Shown: piece by piece, positions 1 to 15,000 of the stretch
Layout of the letters: each line of letters begins with the position of its first letter
How positions within the stretch are numbered: the stretch's first letter is position 1
DNA from: Campylobacterota bacterium
Lineage (GTDB): Bacteria > Campylobacterota > Campylobacteria > Campylobacterales > Sulfurovaceae
Direction: 5' to 3'
NCBI GenBank assembly: GCA_034722955.1
Contig: JAYEOM010000011.1
Coordinates: forward strand, 1-24,818
DNA length: 24,818 bases
Program-made: the position numbers

Positions 1-3000
1 TCTATTCACAACAGTTCCTTTCGGCTACAATCAGCTATATTTTAAATAATTAAGATATTTTTTATATTATACCCTATATGAAACAATACTCATAATAAGC
101 ACAGCGTTTGCAGTGATTTTCAAATATAGGCTTAGGAGGATTTGATAAATCTATCAACGCCTCTATCTTCCCTAGCACCTCCAAAAGCTCCTTTTCATTC
201 TCATCATCTAGCTCTATATACTCTATCTTTTTACTCTGCCTCTTCTTCTCTATGTACTCAATCTTGCCCTTTTTGAGTACCCCTTTGGCTTTGAGCTTGT
301 AGAGGTAGAGTAGCACCTGCCACTTGACTGCTTCGGGGTCACTATCAGACTTTTTGACCTCTACCAAATAGTCACGGGTGAGTTTGTCTATCTTGACATT
401 GTCTATGCTTATCTCTGTCTTTTTGCCTTTTTCTTCGTTGATTTCGTGGAGTATCTTGCCTATGCGTACATCTTCACTATTCTCTTCGAGGTTGATGCGG
501 TTGGCATGGAGCCAACACTGGGTCTTGCAGTGGAAATAGTAGTTGATTAGTGTTCCTGTGACGGGGTTCATTGTTTTCCTTTTACTCTATAAACTGCAAA
601 CTATGTTTCATAGCATTTCTCAAAAAAACGACCATCTTCGCACTCTCATCAAACCCATCCAAATACTCCCTCTTCTCTTCGCTCAATATTAATGGCGGTA
701 TGAAGTCATTTTGTATCGCTTGAAAAGTCATCAAGAGTCTTCCTATCCGTCCATTGCCATCAGCAAAAGGGTGGATAGTCTCAAACGCAATATGAAACTG
801 AGAAATATCCTCGATATTCATACTACTGTTTTTGTATCTATAGAGTAGATTTTCTAAAGTTTGAGATATCTTATTGGGCGGCGTAAGTGTAACCAAACTA
901 CCTTGTATATGTCTCTCATCAGCTCTATATGCTCCTATAGGTTTGGGGACAAAAGAGGGCATCACCTGCAAAGCATCTTCAAACATAATCTCATGCAAGT
1001 CCTTGATAAAAGCCGTATCAAGCCCTCTTGTAGGATTGGCTGATTCGCGTATCACGACATCAAAAGCCTTGGCAAATCCCAAGATAACCAACTGCTCATG
1101 CATAGGTTTTTCTTTGGCTGTTATGCCATACTCCAAGAGCAATTTAGTCTCTCCAAAAGAGAGTGTAGTTCCCTCCATAGCATTAGAGTGATGCGTCACA
1201 GAGAGCCGCAACTCCCGAAACAGTCTCTCTTTTTGTTTTGTTGTTAGGGTGTTAAGTTTCATTTTTTGGATTTCCTTTTATAAAAACATTCCCACATTTT
1301 CACCCTTTAAAACAGAAGTATCTAAGCCATTTTTATAGGTATAAATAATTGAACCATTTTCAAAGCCTCCGTCATAAGCTAAAAACTCTCTATCTAAAAC
1401 CAAATAACCATACTCCTCTTTAGAATACACTCCTAATCTCTCTACTCCACTTCCTTGATATTTTGCCAAAGAGAAAGTATATTTAGAAATTTCTGAAGCT
1501 AGAGTTTGTAGTTTGATATTTTTATTGGTAAAATCTAACTCTTTGTTTTGAACAAGCTCTCCATACTCTTTCCAGACTCTCATAGCCTCATCACACCAAG
1601 GTACAAAAACAGAAACCGATTCCATATCAATAATCTTAATGTGTGATTCACTAAATCTAAGGTTTTTGATATGATCAATATAACTATCTAATCCCTCTAT
1701 AAATGGAGTATCGTTTGATTCTTTAATCTTTGCAATTACTTGGTTATAATAAATATCAAAATCTTTAGTCTCCAGAACATTTTTTTTCTCTTCTTTTCCC
1801 TCTATTGTTTCTATATATTCAGAGGATATTCCAAGTCTCTTATCGCCCTTATAAACAAACTTAGCTTTAGGATTTTCCATCTCAAACAAAAAGAGTTTAT
1901 TTCCTGCTTTTGAAGAGTTGCGATTGATACGCCCTGCGAGTTGTTCATCACTATCTATAAGAGATTTTTCTTTAAATCCAATATCCATATCTATATCCAC
2001 ACCAGCTTCCACCACCTGTGTAGTCACTAGCAAAATATTTTTATCGTTATTCTCTTTTAAAAAATCAATAATCTCTCTTCTTCTTGGCTCTAATATCGTA
2101 CCACTCAAAATAAATATCTCATCAAAAAATATTTTATTTTTAGCTACTGCCTCTTGATAAAACTCATCTGCACCTTTTTTGGTAATGAACTCTATAATAG
2201 TTCTCACGACATTACTTTCATTACTCTCTAATTTTTGGTACGATTTACTCTCTTGCAATAATCTCTTATAAATATCTTTTGAATCTTTTATAGTTTTCTT
2301 TTCGGTAGATATATCAACTCGTCGTCCAAAATTTGGATTTGAAAAATACTCTTGTTTATTTGATACCAAAGGAATAAACTTACTATTTGGCTCATTTAAA
2401 ATATCGCCTATCTTTGGCAAAGTAGCACTCATAACAATAAATTTGATATTAAATTGCTCTGCAAAACTATCAAGTAGATAAACGATACTAGACCACAAAG
2501 AGGGGCTATAAGTCTGTATCTCATCTATTATTACTATAGAGTTAGCCAATCTATGAAAGATATAGTTATCATCTTTACTTACACCCGTGAGGATATTAAA
2601 AAACTTTACATGACTTAGCATCGTAATAGGATAATTCATAAATTGATTATCTAAAAAGTTTGTTTTATCATCTCCATAAATACCATCTTTCTCTATCTCA
2701 TTCTTATCATTATATTTTGCTTTTGAGTGAAGTTGTACTATCTCACTATTATCGAGATCTAAAACATCTTTTATAGCGTCATAGGTTTGTGTGATAAGTG
2801 TCGTAAATGGAAATACATAAAAGATTTTATTGATAGAACTATCCTCTTTTAAAATCTCAACTGCACTCATAAGAGATAAGTTTGTTTTTCCTGCACCTGT
2901 GGGGGCTTCAATATAAAAGAGATTTTTAGTTATATTGTCTTTTAGATTTTCTCTCACTTCCAAAAAGAGTTTATTTCTTAAGATATTGAGATTTTTATTT

Positions 3001-12000: not shown

Positions 12001-15000
12001 CCCAAACAAAACCCACCACCAAAGCTATTCTTCTCTCCAAGCCCACAAGCTAGGGCTACAAAAGCCAACTTTTGGCTCACTTCATCTTCGTTGGGAACTA
12101 TCTTGAACTTATTGCCATAAAACTTGACAGGTTTGCCATCACTATGTGTTTTGTTGGTTTGTATAGTCTGTAGGCGGTTGTTTTTGAGTTCAAATAGTTG
12201 GATGAAGTTTTGTATGCTTTTGATTGGTTCATTGTAAAACTCTTGGTATTTTTTCTCTAGGTTGTCTTGAAGTTGTTTATGTAGGAGCATCAAGTCATCT
12301 TCTTTGACCCAGTATCTGTCTTTGGCTACGGTGACGATGACAGGGGTGGCAGAGTAGAGTTCTGAGATGAAAAATTGGTTGATAGTTTTTTTGTGTGTCT
12401 CTACTATGAGTAGGTGGGGGTTGTCTATGTTGGCTCTTAGCGTAGTGGAGAGTCTATCTATGAAGCTCTTCTCTAGTGAGCGGATGACAAACTTATAGGT
12501 GTTGCCTTTGAGATATATCTTGTCGCGTTCTATGGGAAGTAGTCCACCAAACAGATAGTGTTTAAATCCTGTAGTACTATGAAGTTTTTTCAGCTCCTCG
12601 TCTTGAGCCATAGAGTAGCTGATATAGCGTGATAGTATGTCAAAGCTTTGCGTGAAGCTAATATCCTCTTTTATGTATGCTGTGCATGTCAGTTCAAAAT
12701 ATTTCAAAATATCTCCTTATTGAAAATAATATTTTGATTATAGCACAACCCAGAGGGATAGGTGTGATATTGTGCCATCTTGGAGTATCCTGATTTGGAA
12801 CCTTCTTAGAAACGCTCCTCCATCTCTACATTGATCTCTCTCATTTTTGCTCCTTGATCTAGGCATCGTATCTGATGTTTGCCAGGGGGTAGGTAGCGGT
12901 ATAGCGGTATCCCTGATTTGCCCTCAAGTGGAGGGTCATTGTCTATCAGCCACAGGATAGTGGTATTTGTCTCAAAGGCGTAGCATTGTAGTTTTGTCTT
13001 TTTGAACTCTTGGGGCAAGAGTCTGTTTTGGATCTGTTTCTGCCCATCGACAGGACTGGTGATGAGGGGATCATATGCTCTCCACATGGGATAGCAGGTA
13101 TGGGATGATAGCTCCTCCATAGAGCTGATACGCCTACGGTCAAAGAGTGTCGCTAGAACCTCTGCACGCAGTAGATGACATGGCAGTGTCGCATCGACCC
13201 CATCGATAACTTCATCATATATATACTCTCTGCAAGCTCCTATCTCTATGGTATCTTGACATATTTTTTTACTCTTGATACCTTGAGGCTTGACAAACCA
13301 CTCCTTGGGCTTAAGCAGCCCAAAGATATCCAACAGTGTCGGAGAAGCTGCGGCTAGCCCTGTAAGTCTCCTCTCTTTTTTGCCACTACTAGTCAAGCTC
13401 TTTCCCATAGAGCCATCAAAGTTACCATACCACACTGCGACCGTATATTCAGGAGTATACCCAATACTCAGCATATCTCTAGCATTGGCAGATGTCCCTG
13501 TCTTGAACGCCACTCTCGAACTACTCCCCATATACTCCCATGAGCTTGTAAACGATTGTCTCGGAGCATCGACAAGGATTTGACTGATGAGATAGGAGGA
13601 CTCCTCTGTGAGGATCTTCTGACCTATGGGCGGACTATGGGGCAAAAACGAGCTATTTCGGTAGAGACCTTTGTTTGCAAAAGAGGCAAACAGTTCTGCC
13701 AAATTTTTGAGCGTGATGCCACACCCGCCCAGTGTCAATGAACTACCATAATAATCTTTTGGATGGTTGATAGAGGAGATATTTGCCTGCTTGAGCAGAC
13801 TATAGAGAGAGGCATCACCTAGAAGTCTATCTAGCTCAACAGCAGGGATATTGAGAGAGAGTTGCAGTGCCTCTTTGGCTGTCACTTCACCTAGAAACTG
13901 TTCACTGTAGTTGAGCGGTTTGTAGCCTTCGATACTCAGAGGGATATCATATAGTTTTCTCAGCGGAGTGATAAGTCCCTGCTCCAGTGCTTTGGCATAG
14001 ATGAAAGGCTTGAGTGTCGAACCGGGACTCACTAGTGCTTTGAGACCATCCACCTCTCCTCCATATCTCTTGTCTCTAAAATCTTGAGAGCCTACATAAG
14101 CCAATATTGTCATATCTCTATTGTCGATGACAATTGCGGCAGCATTGTAGATATGCAGCTGATTTAGTATCTCTATCTTATCTTTTAGAAGATATTCTAT
14201 CTGCTGCTGTAGGGAGAGATCTATCGTAGTGACAACCTTGCCTCCGCCTCTAAATTTGGCACTAAGTTGCGGAGCGAAATATACCAAATCCGCTCTATGA
14301 GGAGATAGACTCTCCTGCATAGCCCTACTATACCTCTCTTGTGATAAACCATCATCATCATAGAGTCTAGTGAGCACCTTCTCTTTGAGACGGTTTATAC
14401 GAGAGAAGTTTTTTGACTCTTTTTTGGGCAGGTTTAGATTTGGATTTTGAGGGATAGCTATGAGGTAGGCTATCTGAGCAAGCGAAAGAGACTCTACAGG
14501 CGTGTCGAAGTAGGCAAAAGCAGCCGATGAGAAACCCTCTATATTTCCCCCGTATGGTGTATTGTTGAGGTACATTTCCAAAATCTCATCTTTGGAGTAG
14601 TGATACTCCAGCTGTAGAGAGATAAACATCTCTATAAGTTTATTGCCTACTGTTCTAGGCTTGCGATGCATCATCCTAGCTACCTGCATCGTCAGTGTTG
14701 AAGCCCCTATGGTGCGTCGGTTTCGGAGATTGAACCATGCGGCTCTAGCCAGAGAGATGGGGTTGATACCAAAATGGTGATAAAAATAGTGATCTTCATA
14801 TGCCAAGAGTGTTTGCCTGATATCTTCTGTGATCTCAGATGACTCTATGGGTATCCGCAAAAATCCATCTTCGCTCAAGTGCAGACGCAGCAGTTGATGG
14901 TGCCGATCATAGATCAGGGTTGACTGGGGTTTATAGAGTCGTTTTCGATCCAGAGGATAGAGTCTATCCAGCAGCAAAAACAGAAAGATAGAGAGGAGTA

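Follow-up and report, generated by a model that had tools for sequence, protein, structure and literature searches.

Septu, a stand-alone defence system, consists of an ATPase, PtuA, and an HNH nuclease, PtuB, encoded by two adjacent genes. The same pair has been co-opted by retrons of type I-A (Ec78/Eco7), in which it is joined to another nucleic-acid-based immune system; Septu and retron PtuAB are reported to target tRNA-Tyr or nick DNA (PMC12819146). HNH nucleases also occur with class 1 CRISPR effectors in the HNH-Cascade variants I-E2, I-F4 and IV-A2, where the HNH domain is reported to be fused to Cas5, Cas8 or DinG and Cas3 to be lost (PMC12669027, PMC10910872). Toxin–antitoxin, defence and regulator genes between cas genes, at "hotspots of gene shuffling", are described by Shmakov et al. 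(2023), mainly for one type I-D position (10.1101/2023.03.03.530964).

The locus analysed here, located in a 24,818-nt window (the whole stretch of DNA studied, which opens contig C11 of a Campylobacterota genome), differs from each of these systems. It is a genuine type I-B CRISPR-Cas operon, assembled from at least two sources, in which PtuAB separates cas8b from the cas8/cas7 gene that comes next. As in Septu, ptuA and ptuB are adjacent, the ATPase motifs are kept, and solved PtuA (8ee4; 1.1e-28 with profile A3) and PtuB (chains 8ee7 and 22bv) structures are the best PDB matches; unlike there, the pair is inside a cas operon and its PtuA is a short 308-aa form. NCBIfam names the matches of both proteins after the retron, but searches with Pfam, NCBIfam and PADLOC found no reverse transcriptase in the operon, and there is no sign that the host system physically controls the pair; positions 1–13000 had no match among Rfam families. 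In contrast to the HNH-Cascade variants, the HNH nuclease is a separate PtuB with its own ATPase, and Cas3 is present. Relative to the cargo covered by Shmakov et al., the cargo here belongs to type I-B operons, is found at almost all of their junctions, and includes one kind, PtuAB, that is tied to one slot.

All operon genes are on the minus strand and tightly spaced, with overlaps of 8 and 4 nt and gaps of 3–15 nt. The first gene is cas6 (11985..12707, 240 aa; PADLOC Cas6b 1.9e-72, TIGR01877 2.9e-20; G+C 0.40), followed by cas8b1 (10321..11988, 555 aa; PADLOC Cas8b 3.3e-108, residues 1–552 on positions 1–556 of the 559-position profile), ptuA (9402..10328, 308 aa; PADLOC 5.6e-73, NF041760 1.1e-40), which shares its first 8 nt with the end of cas8b1, and the HNH endonuclease gene ptuB (8715..9398, 227 aa; PADLOC 1.9e-61, NF041761 9.4e-25, TIGR02646 4.2e-19). 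Next come a broken SEC-C-motif cargo gene (7918..8718; Pfam SEC-C 7.6e-11) and an intergenic region of 393 nt (7525..7917), at which two parts of the operon are joined. The second part comprises cas8b2 (5578..7524, 648 aa; PADLOC Cas8b 9.3e-34 over residues 289–641, the C-terminal half only), cas7 (4635..5591, 318 aa; Pfam Cas_Cas7 3.2e-26), cas5 (3896..4633, 245 aa; PADLOC Cas5 9.7e-29), cas3 with HD and helicase domains (1278..3908, 876 aa; PADLOC Cas3b 8.2e-222, TIGR01587, TIGR01596), a Fic-domain cargo gene (582..1262, 226 aa; PADLOC PDC-S04 7.9e-40, Pfam Fic 1.6e-17; G+C 0.40), whose protein has the motif read HPFADGNGRIGR, and cas4 (74..571, 165 aa; PADLOC Cas4b 3.4e-58).

The gene order goes on in contig C71 with a HipA-like gene, cas1, cas2 and an array. 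The 60 nt that open C11 align with C71 at position 2683, 127 nt short of the C71 end, in agreement with the overlap of 127 nt reported earlier, and HipA_C (5.4e-35), Cas2 and a C-terminal part of Cas1 are indeed on C71. The preliminary description of the locus was upheld for the operon, its gene order across the two contigs, the PADLOC, Pfam and NCBIfam family assignments and the nesting, while four side statements had to be corrected. It held that no CRISPR array adjoins the operon; in fact, C71 carries two 30-nt repeats (12–41 and 79–108) directly after cas2, at the contig end. The array on contig C43, suggested as the operon's own, differs from it in both repeat and Cas6 family, and the operon has its own cas6; the C43 repeat resembles that of an array on C109 which adjoins RT-Cas1, Cas2 and Csx23. 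The low-G+C block noted previously does exist and ends at the cas6–cas8b1 and cas3–Fic junctions; cas6, Fic and cas4 have a G+C content of 0.40–0.42, like the genome (0.40). Since the related loci L021 and L022 show the same step, it is partly intrinsic to these genes.

The two Cas8b proteins, as stated before, share 26% identity over 95 aa. The cas8b1 product is a full-length member of the Cas8b family that PtuAB follows in other operons, 44–50% identical to the five best of 15 other matching genomes, and it agrees with alignment A2 at each of the 21 invariant columns. The cas8b2 gene had been taken for a second, divergent copy, but it is rather the cognate Cas8 gene of the cas7-cas5-cas3 module. 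Its orthologues (43–79% identity; 59–79% for the four closest full-length ones) are the only cas8 seen in those five loci, out of seven, that reach upstream to cas6. All seven Cas8b2-type loci belong to low-G+C Campylobacterota, and their cas7, cas5 and cas3 products are 62–83% identical to those of this operon (Cas7 62–81% in L035–L041, Cas5 71–83% in L036–L041, Cas3 63–70% in L037–L039). By comparison with these relatives, cas8b2 is the usual and only Cas8 in I-B modules of the Arcobacter type, and such a module, cas8b2-cas7-cas5-cas3, forms the interference core; cas8b1, the companion of PtuAB, is the odd Cas8 in the operon. The 4,476-nt block between cas6 and cas8b2 (7525..12000, minus strand), containing the last bases of cas6, cas8b1, ptuA, ptuB, the SEC-C cargo gene, now interrupted, and a new intergenic region, is the opening portion of an I-B operon of a different type. 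The block is missing from a variant contig of this habitat: record 12 of run X2 (552 nt) connects position 7524 to 12001 through 15 letters of its own, showing no differences over 369 nt on the cas8b2 side and 21 over 122 nt on the cas6 side. In a blastn search with 7400–8800, the joint 7525–7917 had no homologue in loci L020–L041, to which similarity begins only at the cas8b2 start codon.

Such a structure could have been produced by joining the cas genes of two organisms from the metagenome during assembly. The genome is a draft broken into 140 contigs, and its DNA occurs in metagenome runs; G+C steps coincide with the two junctions named above, the assembly graph branches at 11988–12017 and, among the pieces listed, the joint at 7525–7650 is bridged only in run X1, a possible source of the draft. 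However, unbranched unitigs bridge Fic to cas3 (X1, 452–1970), cas5 to the first part of the SEC-C gene, orf97 (X1, 4023–8729, with one difference), and SEC-C to cas8b1 (X2, 8173–10473); the second of these makes the fused form a single graph path. Two switches that restore gene order would be needed, and L021 and L022, with the same G+C step, are isolate-like. We therefore consider a chimera highly improbable; the locus looks like a working, mosaic type I-B operon.

The SEC-C gene consists of orf97 (8718–8425) and a 147-aa open reading frame (8361–7918) in one frame, separated by a single in-frame TAG at 8427–8425; neither had been recorded in the preliminary description. In locus L047, an intact 283-aa open reading frame (8371–9222), located between cas3 and cas4, spans both halves with 46% and 39% identity. 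The broken gene, the joint without homologues and the coexistence of a block-less variant in the habitat are what one would expect if cas8b1-PtuAB-SEC-C were an accidental, decaying leftover of recombination. Against this, cas8b1, ptuA and ptuB retain their full length and every invariant residue, and we regard such a scar as improbable.

PtuA is a short form of the ABC-type Septu ATPase, which retains the invariant G43-N45-G46-G48-K49-T50, S144/G146, D170-E171 and H204 but lacks an N-terminal domain of about 135 aa and an insert present in 490-aa forms. Seven of the eight complete short forms (295–310 aa) without this domain are nested in cas operons, the eighth (L115) being free-standing; their prevalence in nested loci would fit dependence on a partner. 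The nesting of PtuAB between cas8b and cas7 that had been reported for two other genomes (here G268 and G049) was reproduced, and its recurrence extended to G572 and G597, so that five genomes including this one share the slot. Of 38 metagenomic contigs encoding PtuA relatives, most of whose accessions form one numeric series and may stem from one or a few projects, 31 have a cas gene directly beside PtuAB, always on the side predicted by this slot. PtuA identities range from 34 to 72% across genomes and metagenomic contigs, two of which duplicate genomes already counted (L073 is G049, and L052 is G572).

These data raise the possibility that PtuAB belongs to these I-B systems as a genuine accessory module and works as one unit with cas8b1. 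Cas8b or Cascade would restrain it or relay its trigger, much as RT-msDNA restrains PtuAB in retrons, and engagement or inhibition of Cascade would then bring an additional nuclease or abortive arm into play. Besides the recurrent slot and the precedent of retron I-A (PMC12819146), its reading frames overlap or abut cas8b and cas7, and cas8b1 came intact with PtuAB into a second I-B system. Moreover, in L021 and L071 the Cas8b proteins are 96% identical while the adjacent PtuA proteins share 48%, so the slot was refilled with a divergent PtuAB, hinting at a requirement. On the other hand, PtuAB is free-standing in 11 equally close loci (PtuA 35–60% identity), with no Cas proteins in the 32 neighbouring open reading frames scanned, and these relatives are interleaved with nested ones in the PtuA tree (40 rows), which requires at least five switches. 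PtuA and Cas8b are decoupled and do not co-diverge: their identities are uncorrelated in ten loci (Mantel r 0.09, p 0.33), and in L042 and L043 PtuA is 97% but Cas8b only 32% identical. In addition, PtuAB occurs with differing Cas8b and Cas7 subfamilies, is missing from 12 of 15 sister operons, and leaves cas3 in place in every complete operon seen with it nested. Overall, a functional link to CRISPR-Cas appears unlikely, though less so than a scar.

Furthermore, PtuAB is only one of many unrelated genes nested in such operons. Nine relatives had been called canonical, but 20-kb loci reveal otherwise: among the 15 other genomes with this Cas8b, ten have non-cas genes inside the operon, four do not, and one contig is too short. 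The cargo of the ten comprises PD-T4-5-like, PDC-S13, PDC-S02, DRT UG13a, Phd with PIN, SIR2 with STAND, type I R-M, MBL, and NERD with SEC-C genes; five of the seven Cas8b2-type loci carry ParE, HIRAN, YhcG nuclease or 172-aa open reading frames. Cargo nesting is therefore the rule in this I-B family, not an exception. The 62% identity of Fic to its counterpart in G049 was borne out; relatives at 61–62% identity lie between cas7 and cas5 in L022, L050, L066 and L073, while here the gene lies between cas3 and cas4. Fic and SEC-C thus occupy differing slots, indicating that cargo other than PtuAB changes place.

Because unrelated defence genes sit at nearly every cas junction, nesting alone is no proof of coupling; the recurrence claimed in the preliminary description holds, but it does not warrant the further suggestion made there, that a CRISPR system has taken up PtuAB in the way retrons have. 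We favour, with a probability of about 0.6, the view that PtuAB, Fic and HipA are autonomous defence cargo co-transcribed with the cas genes. Fic and the HipA-like kinase, the latter between cas4 and cas1, are further inserts, and all of these inserts would be self-contained innate, abortive-infection or toxin modules that ride in the cas operon, are transcribed together with it and spread among operons through recombination in conserved flanking cas genes, which would also hold PtuAB between cas8b and cas7. PtuAB would act as an ordinary Septu, with the ATPase holding the HNH nuclease until infection frees it to cut tRNA or DNA independently of crRNA. Some observations fit this cargo reading poorly: PtuAB keeps to one slot while other cargo moves, a vacated slot received a divergent PtuAB and not something else, cas8b1 arrived with it in an operon already having a Cas8, and short PtuA forms are found chiefly in nested loci.

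The joint between the two operon parts contains a solitary CRISPR repeat-like 30-mer (7842..7871, plus strand, opposite to the operon), identical to the C71 array repeat at 26 of 30 positions; apart from the array itself, no other genomic site matches that repeat with four or fewer mismatches. No second repeat is present nearby (the best other 30-mer matches at 16/30), and none of about 70 related loci has this element. The four changes fall at position 1 and positions 15–17; in our reading, the latter would form the hairpin loop, so that the stem and the 8-nt handle are spared. The repeat is followed by a pseudo-spacer (7872..7907, plus strand) closed by a 10-bp stem (7821–7830 with 7893–7902), after which comes a T run, and the predicted fold of 7812–7912 has −19.8 kcal/mol (z −2.75), with 2 of 200 shuffles as good. 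A candidate target (7727..7744, plus strand) has a 5′-TCA flank, compared with the PAM TWA reported for Nitratiruptor I-B (PMC9723563), and a 15-nt seed match that begins exactly at the repeat boundary, with positions 1–11 and 13–15 matching and position 12 mismatched. Markov simulations yielded a prefix of at least 11 nt 4 times in 2000 runs and never, in 2000, a seed of at least 15 with every sixth base free; genome-wide, the seed pattern occurs only in the target, the pseudo-spacer and at C42:14909. A repeat unique to this locus could be an array remnant and part of the recombination scar discussed above, but the rarity of such a seed by chance and the sparing of stem and handle argue against mere decay.

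This arrangement resembles CreR and CreA of CreTA, crRNA-like regulators that derive from stand-alone repeats or mini-arrays, as presented by Shmakov et al. (10.1101/2023.03.03.530964). In common are a long intergenic region ahead of cas8 that holds a sequence similar to a repeat, a 5′ seed match of at least 10 nt to a nearby site, a mismatch at a sixth position and the opposite orientation. It differs in having one repeat only, unconserved in relatives, and no identified toxin gene. The downstream unit from cas8b2 to cas2 would probably have its own promoter in the intergenic region, where promoter-like sites are not more numerous than by chance (8 found versus 6.0 ± 2.7). What is new here is a lone CRISPR repeat upstream of cas8b2 with a seed matching a nearby site, as in cas-regulating RNAs; tentatively, and at somewhat less than even odds, it may yield a crRNA-like RNA that steers Cascade to a target some 200 nt ahead of the cas8b2 gene, dampening cas expression.

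All genes of the cas operon lie on the minus strand of contig C11 and were assigned to families with Pfam, NCBIfam and PADLOC profiles. The order runs from cas6 (12707-11985, PADLOC) and a Cas8b gene, cas8b1 (11988-10321, Cas8b at 3.3e-108, matched over its full length), through ptuA (10328-9402, PADLOC, 5.6e-73), ptuB (9398-8715, PADLOC 1.9e-61, NF041761 9.4e-25, TIGR02646 4.2e-19), a 97-aa ORF (orf97, 8718-8425) and a 147-aa ORF with a SEC-C motif (8361-7918), to an intergenic gap of 393 nt and a second Cas8b gene, cas8b2 (7524-5578, Cas8b at 9.3e-34, residues 289-641 only). 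It continues with cas7, cas5 and cas3 (Cas7b, Cas5 and Cas3b by PADLOC, the last at 8.2e-222; Cas5b by TIGR02592) and a Fic gene (1262-582, PDC-S04 7.9e-40, Pfam Fic 1.6e-17), and cas4 (571-74) is the last gene of the operon in the window. Contig C71 has a match to the window's initial 60 nt at position 2683, 127 nt from the C71 end; it encodes a HipA_C protein (5.4e-35) and, beyond a 100-N gap, the C-terminal part of Cas1 followed by Cas2, the gap concealing the Cas1 N-terminus and the C-terminus of the HipA-like protein. Type I-B interference is represented by two Cas8b, Cas7, Cas5 and Cas3 (HD and helicase), and the rest of a type I-B system by cas6 and cas4 in the window and cas1, cas2 and a two-repeat array on C71. 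The gene list and figures of the preliminary description were confirmed, including the order, the E-values, the C71 overlap and the 26% identity of Cas8b1 and Cas8b2 across 95 C-terminal residues. The 3' part of cas4 (344-431) carries many base differences among contigs of three metagenome runs (X1-X3), and the assembly breaks there, at the 127-nt overlap with C71; together, the differences and the break within 1-450 of the window suggest several alleles of the cas4/hipA junction in the population.

C71 opens with a 30-nt repeat present twice (12-41 and 79-108), 66-67 nt apart and directly 3' of cas2, so the operon owns an array that is cut by the contig end, contrary to the earlier statement that no array lies next to it. 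The array on contig C43, previously thought to be a possible partner of the operon, was dropped, since both its repeat and its Cas6 family are different. The repeats of this array (L002, 16523-17069) and of one on contig C109 (L003, 39-374) are related to each other; the latter array has RT-Cas1, Cas2, Csx23 and a WYL protein as neighbours, and the lone cas6 on C43 adjoins a cluster of radical-SAM (pVip-like) and ATPase genes.

A Cas8b2 scan of species genomes revealed seven loci with 43-79% identity and a G+C content of 0.26-0.33, hosted by Malaciobacter, Sulfurimonas and other Campylobacterota. In the five of these that extend upstream to cas6, the Cas8b2-type gene is the sole Cas8 and comes right after cas6 or after a small ORF. 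The cas7, cas5 and cas3 genes downstream of Cas8b2-type genes are 62-83% identical to those of the window. These two features identify cas8b2-cas7-cas5-cas3 as a complete interference module and cas8b1 as the extra gene; the seven relatives thus reverse the view of cas8b2 as the "second, divergent" copy, since it is the module's own Cas8.

Logan contigs from four runs of one study (X1-X4) were compared with the window. Unbranched X1 unitigs span the junction of Fic and cas3 (452-1970) and the region from cas5 to orf97 (4023-8729, one difference), and the stretch between the SEC-C gene and cas8b1 is covered by an unbranched X2 unitig (8173-10473). In an X2 contig of 552 nt, just 15 other letters separate 7524 from 12001; its cas8b2 side agrees with the window throughout, and its cas6 side differs at 21 of 122 positions. 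A cas6-cas8b2 variant without the 4,476-nt block (7525-12000) that holds cas8b1, ptuA, ptuB, the SEC-C gene and the intergenic joint therefore exists in the same habitat. Among the pieces listed, the joint at 7525-7650 is bridged in X1 only, which may be the source run, while X4 contains 7650-7910 with zero differences; a search for repeats flanking the block gave just short, weak matches. Among the sequencing runs listed for 5000-12800 of the window, none is an RNA run. The operon is a mosaic in which cas8b1 is the added gene.

The base composition of the operon is stepped. The genome as a whole has a G+C content of 0.40; cas6, Fic and cas4 have 0.40-0.42, and each gene from cas8b1 through cas3 has 0.25-0.32. 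The contrast reported earlier as a low-G+C block is therefore real, but it is partly a property of the genes themselves, because in two related loci (L021 and L022) cas6, cas4 and cas1 are likewise 6-10 points higher in G+C than the effector genes. The same comparison makes G+C a weaker argument for a native origin of cas6 and cas4.

Besides PtuAB, the operon carries a Fic gene, a HipA-like gene and the SEC-C gene. The Fic core motif, HPFx[D/E]GNGR, is present in the translation as HPFADGNGRIGR. Between cas4 and hipA, no ORF for a HipB-like partner was seen. A single TAG (8427-8425) separates the ORFs of 97 and 147 aa, which share one frame, and in the metagenomic locus L047 one 283-aa ORF spans both halves with 46% and 39% identity; the SEC-C gene of the window is therefore broken. 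One X4 contig lacks a base within this TAG (window 8426), so the site varies in the population.

A Cas8b1 search of 401 genomes of the phylum matched 16, including that of the window. For the other 15, about 20 kb around the match was examined, ORFs were mapped and the non-cas ORFs were scanned with profiles. Cargo was found inside the cas operon in 10 of the 15; four loci are cargo-free (G071, G184, G143 and G210), and the contig of G341 is too short. PtuAB occupies the position between cas8b and cas7 in G268 and in G049, where Fic also lies between cas7 and cas5, and an MBL-fold protein takes the cas8b|cas7 position in G005, which has a NERD and SEC-C protein between cas5 and cas3. The cas5|cas3 position also holds a SIR2 and STAND protein in G045 (with two ORFs between cas4 and cas1), a type I R-M methylase, a specificity subunit, a 347-aa ORF and an ATPase in G007, and a DRT UG13a reverse transcriptase in G067, in which PDC-S02 lies between cas7 and cas5, Phd and PIN between cas3 and cas4, and a 179-aa ORF between cas4 and cas1. 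A PD-T4-5-like gene lies between cas6 and cas8b in G131 and G375, and PDC-S13 between cas4 and cas1 in G131 and between cas3 and cas4 in G317 and G177, the last with a 172-aa ORF between cas6 and cas8. Nesting, described earlier as recurrent for PtuAB, is in fact the rule for cargo in operons of the Cas8b1 family and wider than reported.

Loci of the Cas8b2 type carry ParE between cas7 and cas5, a HIRAN ORF and 172-aa ORFs between cas6 and cas8, a YhcG/DUF1016 nuclease between cas3 and cas4 and, in L035 (1-571), a nucleotidyltransferase ORF just 5' of a 79% identical cas8b2. Before the latter ORF lies one that by eye appears HEPN-like, and the two would form another toxin-antitoxin-type insert. 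The 172-aa ORF between cas6 and the Cas8b2-type gene, which has no family match, recurs in L034 (2539-3057), L037 (9486-10004) and L041 (8687-9205) and is missing from the window. Cargo genes in CRISPR-cas loci have been described as hotspots of gene shuffling, mainly for type I-D (10.1101/2023.03.03.530964).

The PtuA of the window matches Pfam AAA_15 and AAA_21. It keeps all invariant positions of the nucleotide-binding motifs GxNGxGKT, DE and H, and the adjacent ptuB encodes an HNH endonuclease of the TIGR02646/PtuB family. It is a short form, found in other loci as well, that lacks the N-terminal domain of about 135 aa present in the 490-aa nested forms; in a PtuA of G232 encoded outside cas operons, TPR repeats replace this domain. 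The domain is highly conserved between long nested forms (L021, 4698-5100; L022, 4726-5130), and has no Pfam match; when its 135 aa were searched against the Atlas, a lead to DUF8426 (score 0.94) was all that emerged. Retrons of type I-A require a reverse transcriptase and an msr/msd ncRNA beside PtuAB, whereas the ORFs of the window operon include no reverse transcriptase; no Rfam family matched positions 1-13000 at E up to 1. The idea that PtuB substitutes for Cas3 was dropped, as cas3 is present throughout. Septu and retron-borne PtuAB have been reported to act on tRNA-Tyr or nick DNA (PMC12819146), and the PtuAB of the window probably does the same.

Scanning metagenomes with the PtuA of the window yielded 38 loci, most on contigs of one accession series that may stem from one or a few projects and two of them duplicating genomic loci (L073 = G049, L052 = G572); contexts were determined by tblastn and PADLOC. 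A cas gene lies directly beside PtuAB in 31 of the 38: in 12, PtuAB is preceded by cas8b and followed by cas7; in seven, only the upstream cas8b is visible because the contig ends; and in 12, only the downstream cas7 is visible. Seven loci are uninformative, and none of the 38 has non-cas genes on both sides. Another Cas7 subfamily also accompanies PtuAB (L053, L075). Other cargo shifts its slot: Fic lies between cas7 and cas5 in four loci and between cas3 and cas4 in the window, and the SEC-C gene between cas3 and cas4 in L047.

When 401 genomes from the phylum and 401 from the order were searched and gene contexts determined, PtuAB was found in four nested loci besides the window (G268, G049, G572 and G597) and 11 free ones (two each in G232, G539 and G405, and one each in G259, G045, G163, G404 and G423), the contig of a further locus (G552) being too short. 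None of 32 ORFs adjoining free loci matched a Cas profile, and several free loci sit amid other defence genes. In G404 (L116, 7324-9626), a Fic gene (PDC-S04, 4.4e-76) lies directly 5' of PtuAB, so the pair of Fic and PtuAB occurs outside CRISPR loci too. In G232 (L110, 3596-8623) and G539 (L119, 1477-5904), genomes of the window's own family, free PtuAB with 53-54% identical PtuB adjoins recR and pbp1c. The cas operon of the window abuts pbp1c (12806-15046), and this location may be a defence hotspot shared by the cas operon and free PtuAB.

A quick maximum-likelihood tree of PtuA (40 rows, core columns) requires at least five changes between the nested and free states, and the labels are clustered, with a value as low in 1 of 500 shuffles. 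Pairwise identities of PtuA and Cas8b in 10 loci gave a Mantel r of 0.09 (p 0.33) and thus no co-divergence: in L021 and L071 PtuA is 48% identical at a Cas8b identity of 96%, and in L042 and L043 PtuA is 97% identical at a Cas8b identity of 32%. The earlier interpretation is thus only partly supported: the nesting does recur in metagenomes and genomes, but the free loci and the lack of co-divergence speak against the proposal that PtuAB has been taken up by a CRISPR system.

On the simplest reading, the operon carries PtuAB, Fic, the HipA-like kinase and the broken SEC-C gene as cargo, all of them self-contained and of the defence or toxin type. The PtuAB cassette would move between operons through recombination within the cas8b and cas7 genes on either side of it, from which the constant slot would follow, and free copies would be a source pool or escapes. 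A functional coupling of PtuAB to Cascade appears improbable, and what weight it has comes from the constant slot, the refilling of that slot with divergent PtuAB beside near-identical Cas8b, and the travelling of cas8b1 with PtuAB. One could nevertheless propose, at a probability of about 0.2 and by analogy with retrons, a Septu linked to CRISPR, in which Cas8b or Cascade would hold or trigger PtuAB from the cas8b|cas7 slot as retron RT-msDNA does, and engagement or blockage of Cascade would set off a crRNA-independent nuclease or abortive response by this ancillary arm. Here cas8b1 and PtuAB would have entered a second I-B system as one unit, which would give the operon a choice of two Cascades and, at the joint, a crRNA-like autoregulator.

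The joint itself contains a lone repeat at 7842-7871 of the plus strand, opposite in orientation to the operon, which is identical to the array repeat at 26 of 30 positions and is the only such match in the genome. Its four changes fall at position 1 and at loop positions 15-17 of the hairpin as we read it; neither the stem nor the final 8 nt is altered. Directly after the repeat come 15 nt (7872-7886) of which a near-copy lies at 7730-7744, differing at position 12 alone and flanked by 5'-TCA. When the surrounding 1 kb was simulated 2000 times with a first-order Markov model, prefixes of at least 11 nt matched four times, and a seed of at least 15 nt with each sixth base free never arose. Elsewhere in the genome the 15-nt seed pattern has one match, at C42:14909 (flank ACT), in G+C-rich and probably coding surroundings. 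The predicted fold of 7812-7912 (z -2.75) is closed by a stem of 10 bp, after which comes a run of U.

Stand-alone repeats and mini-arrays, often antiparallel to the cas genes, are reported from about 19% of the I-B loci of bacteria; their pseudo-spacers partly match cas8 promoters and tolerate sixth-position mismatches (10.1101/2023.03.03.530964). The window shares with such crRNA-like regulators a repeat that lies apart from the array, between genes of the cas locus, and a partial 5' seed match, but differs in that the lone repeat is not conserved in related loci and has no second, degenerate repeat: no solitary repeat was seen inside the cas operon of about 70 related loci, and the best candidate for a second repeat nearby matches at 16 of 30 positions. 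No leader similarity was found upstream (the best local score spans 16 nt), and 7400-8500 contains no terminators and eight promoter-like sites against 6.0 +/- 2.7 expected, which is not above chance. The array of L037, a locus of Malaciobacter canalis, had no match in plasmids and phages, one C71 spacer prefix and the junction of the lone repeat and its pseudo-spacer had none in viral contigs, and 793 spacers from 15 arrays matched only self-duplicates (L022 = L073, L027 = L012) when compared with the window's genome and all loci. These searches thus gave no protospacer from which to read a PAM; for comparison with the TCA flank of the window target, the PAM of the Nitratiruptor I-B system is TWA (PMC9723563). 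Overall, the sequence features bring a regulatory role of the lone repeat close to, but somewhat below, even odds. By eye, an 18-codon ORF, MQFFVYLAILVKNKGLVK, was also read 3' of a GAGGAG box at 7577-7521 (minus), its TGA overlapping the ATG of cas8b2 (ATGA); a leader peptide is one explanation, chance another.

No description of PtuAB inside a cas operon was found in the titles and abstract openings of papers listed by full-text searches (supplementary tables could list one), nor any mention in passages of PMC10910872, PMC12669027 and PMC12819146; the main text of 10.1101/270033 contains none of the terms searched. The locus is a variant of known things, namely Septu, cargo carried within CRISPR loci, and regulators resembling crRNA.

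If the inserts are plain cargo, the cas operon itself can work as a defence island, in which conserved cas genes serve as recombination handles and the cargo comes under shared cas regulation. This bears on the annotation of CRISPR loci and, since several inserts belong to no known family, on the mining of new defence genes. If PtuAB is linked to CRISPR, Septu would follow retrons as the second innate module with a demonstrated coupling to a nucleic-acid-guided system, and type I-B would acquire an ancillary effector like those so far found mainly in type III. With its pair of Cas8 genes and its lone repeat, the locus also offers a testable case of a chimeric operon restoring its own regulation.
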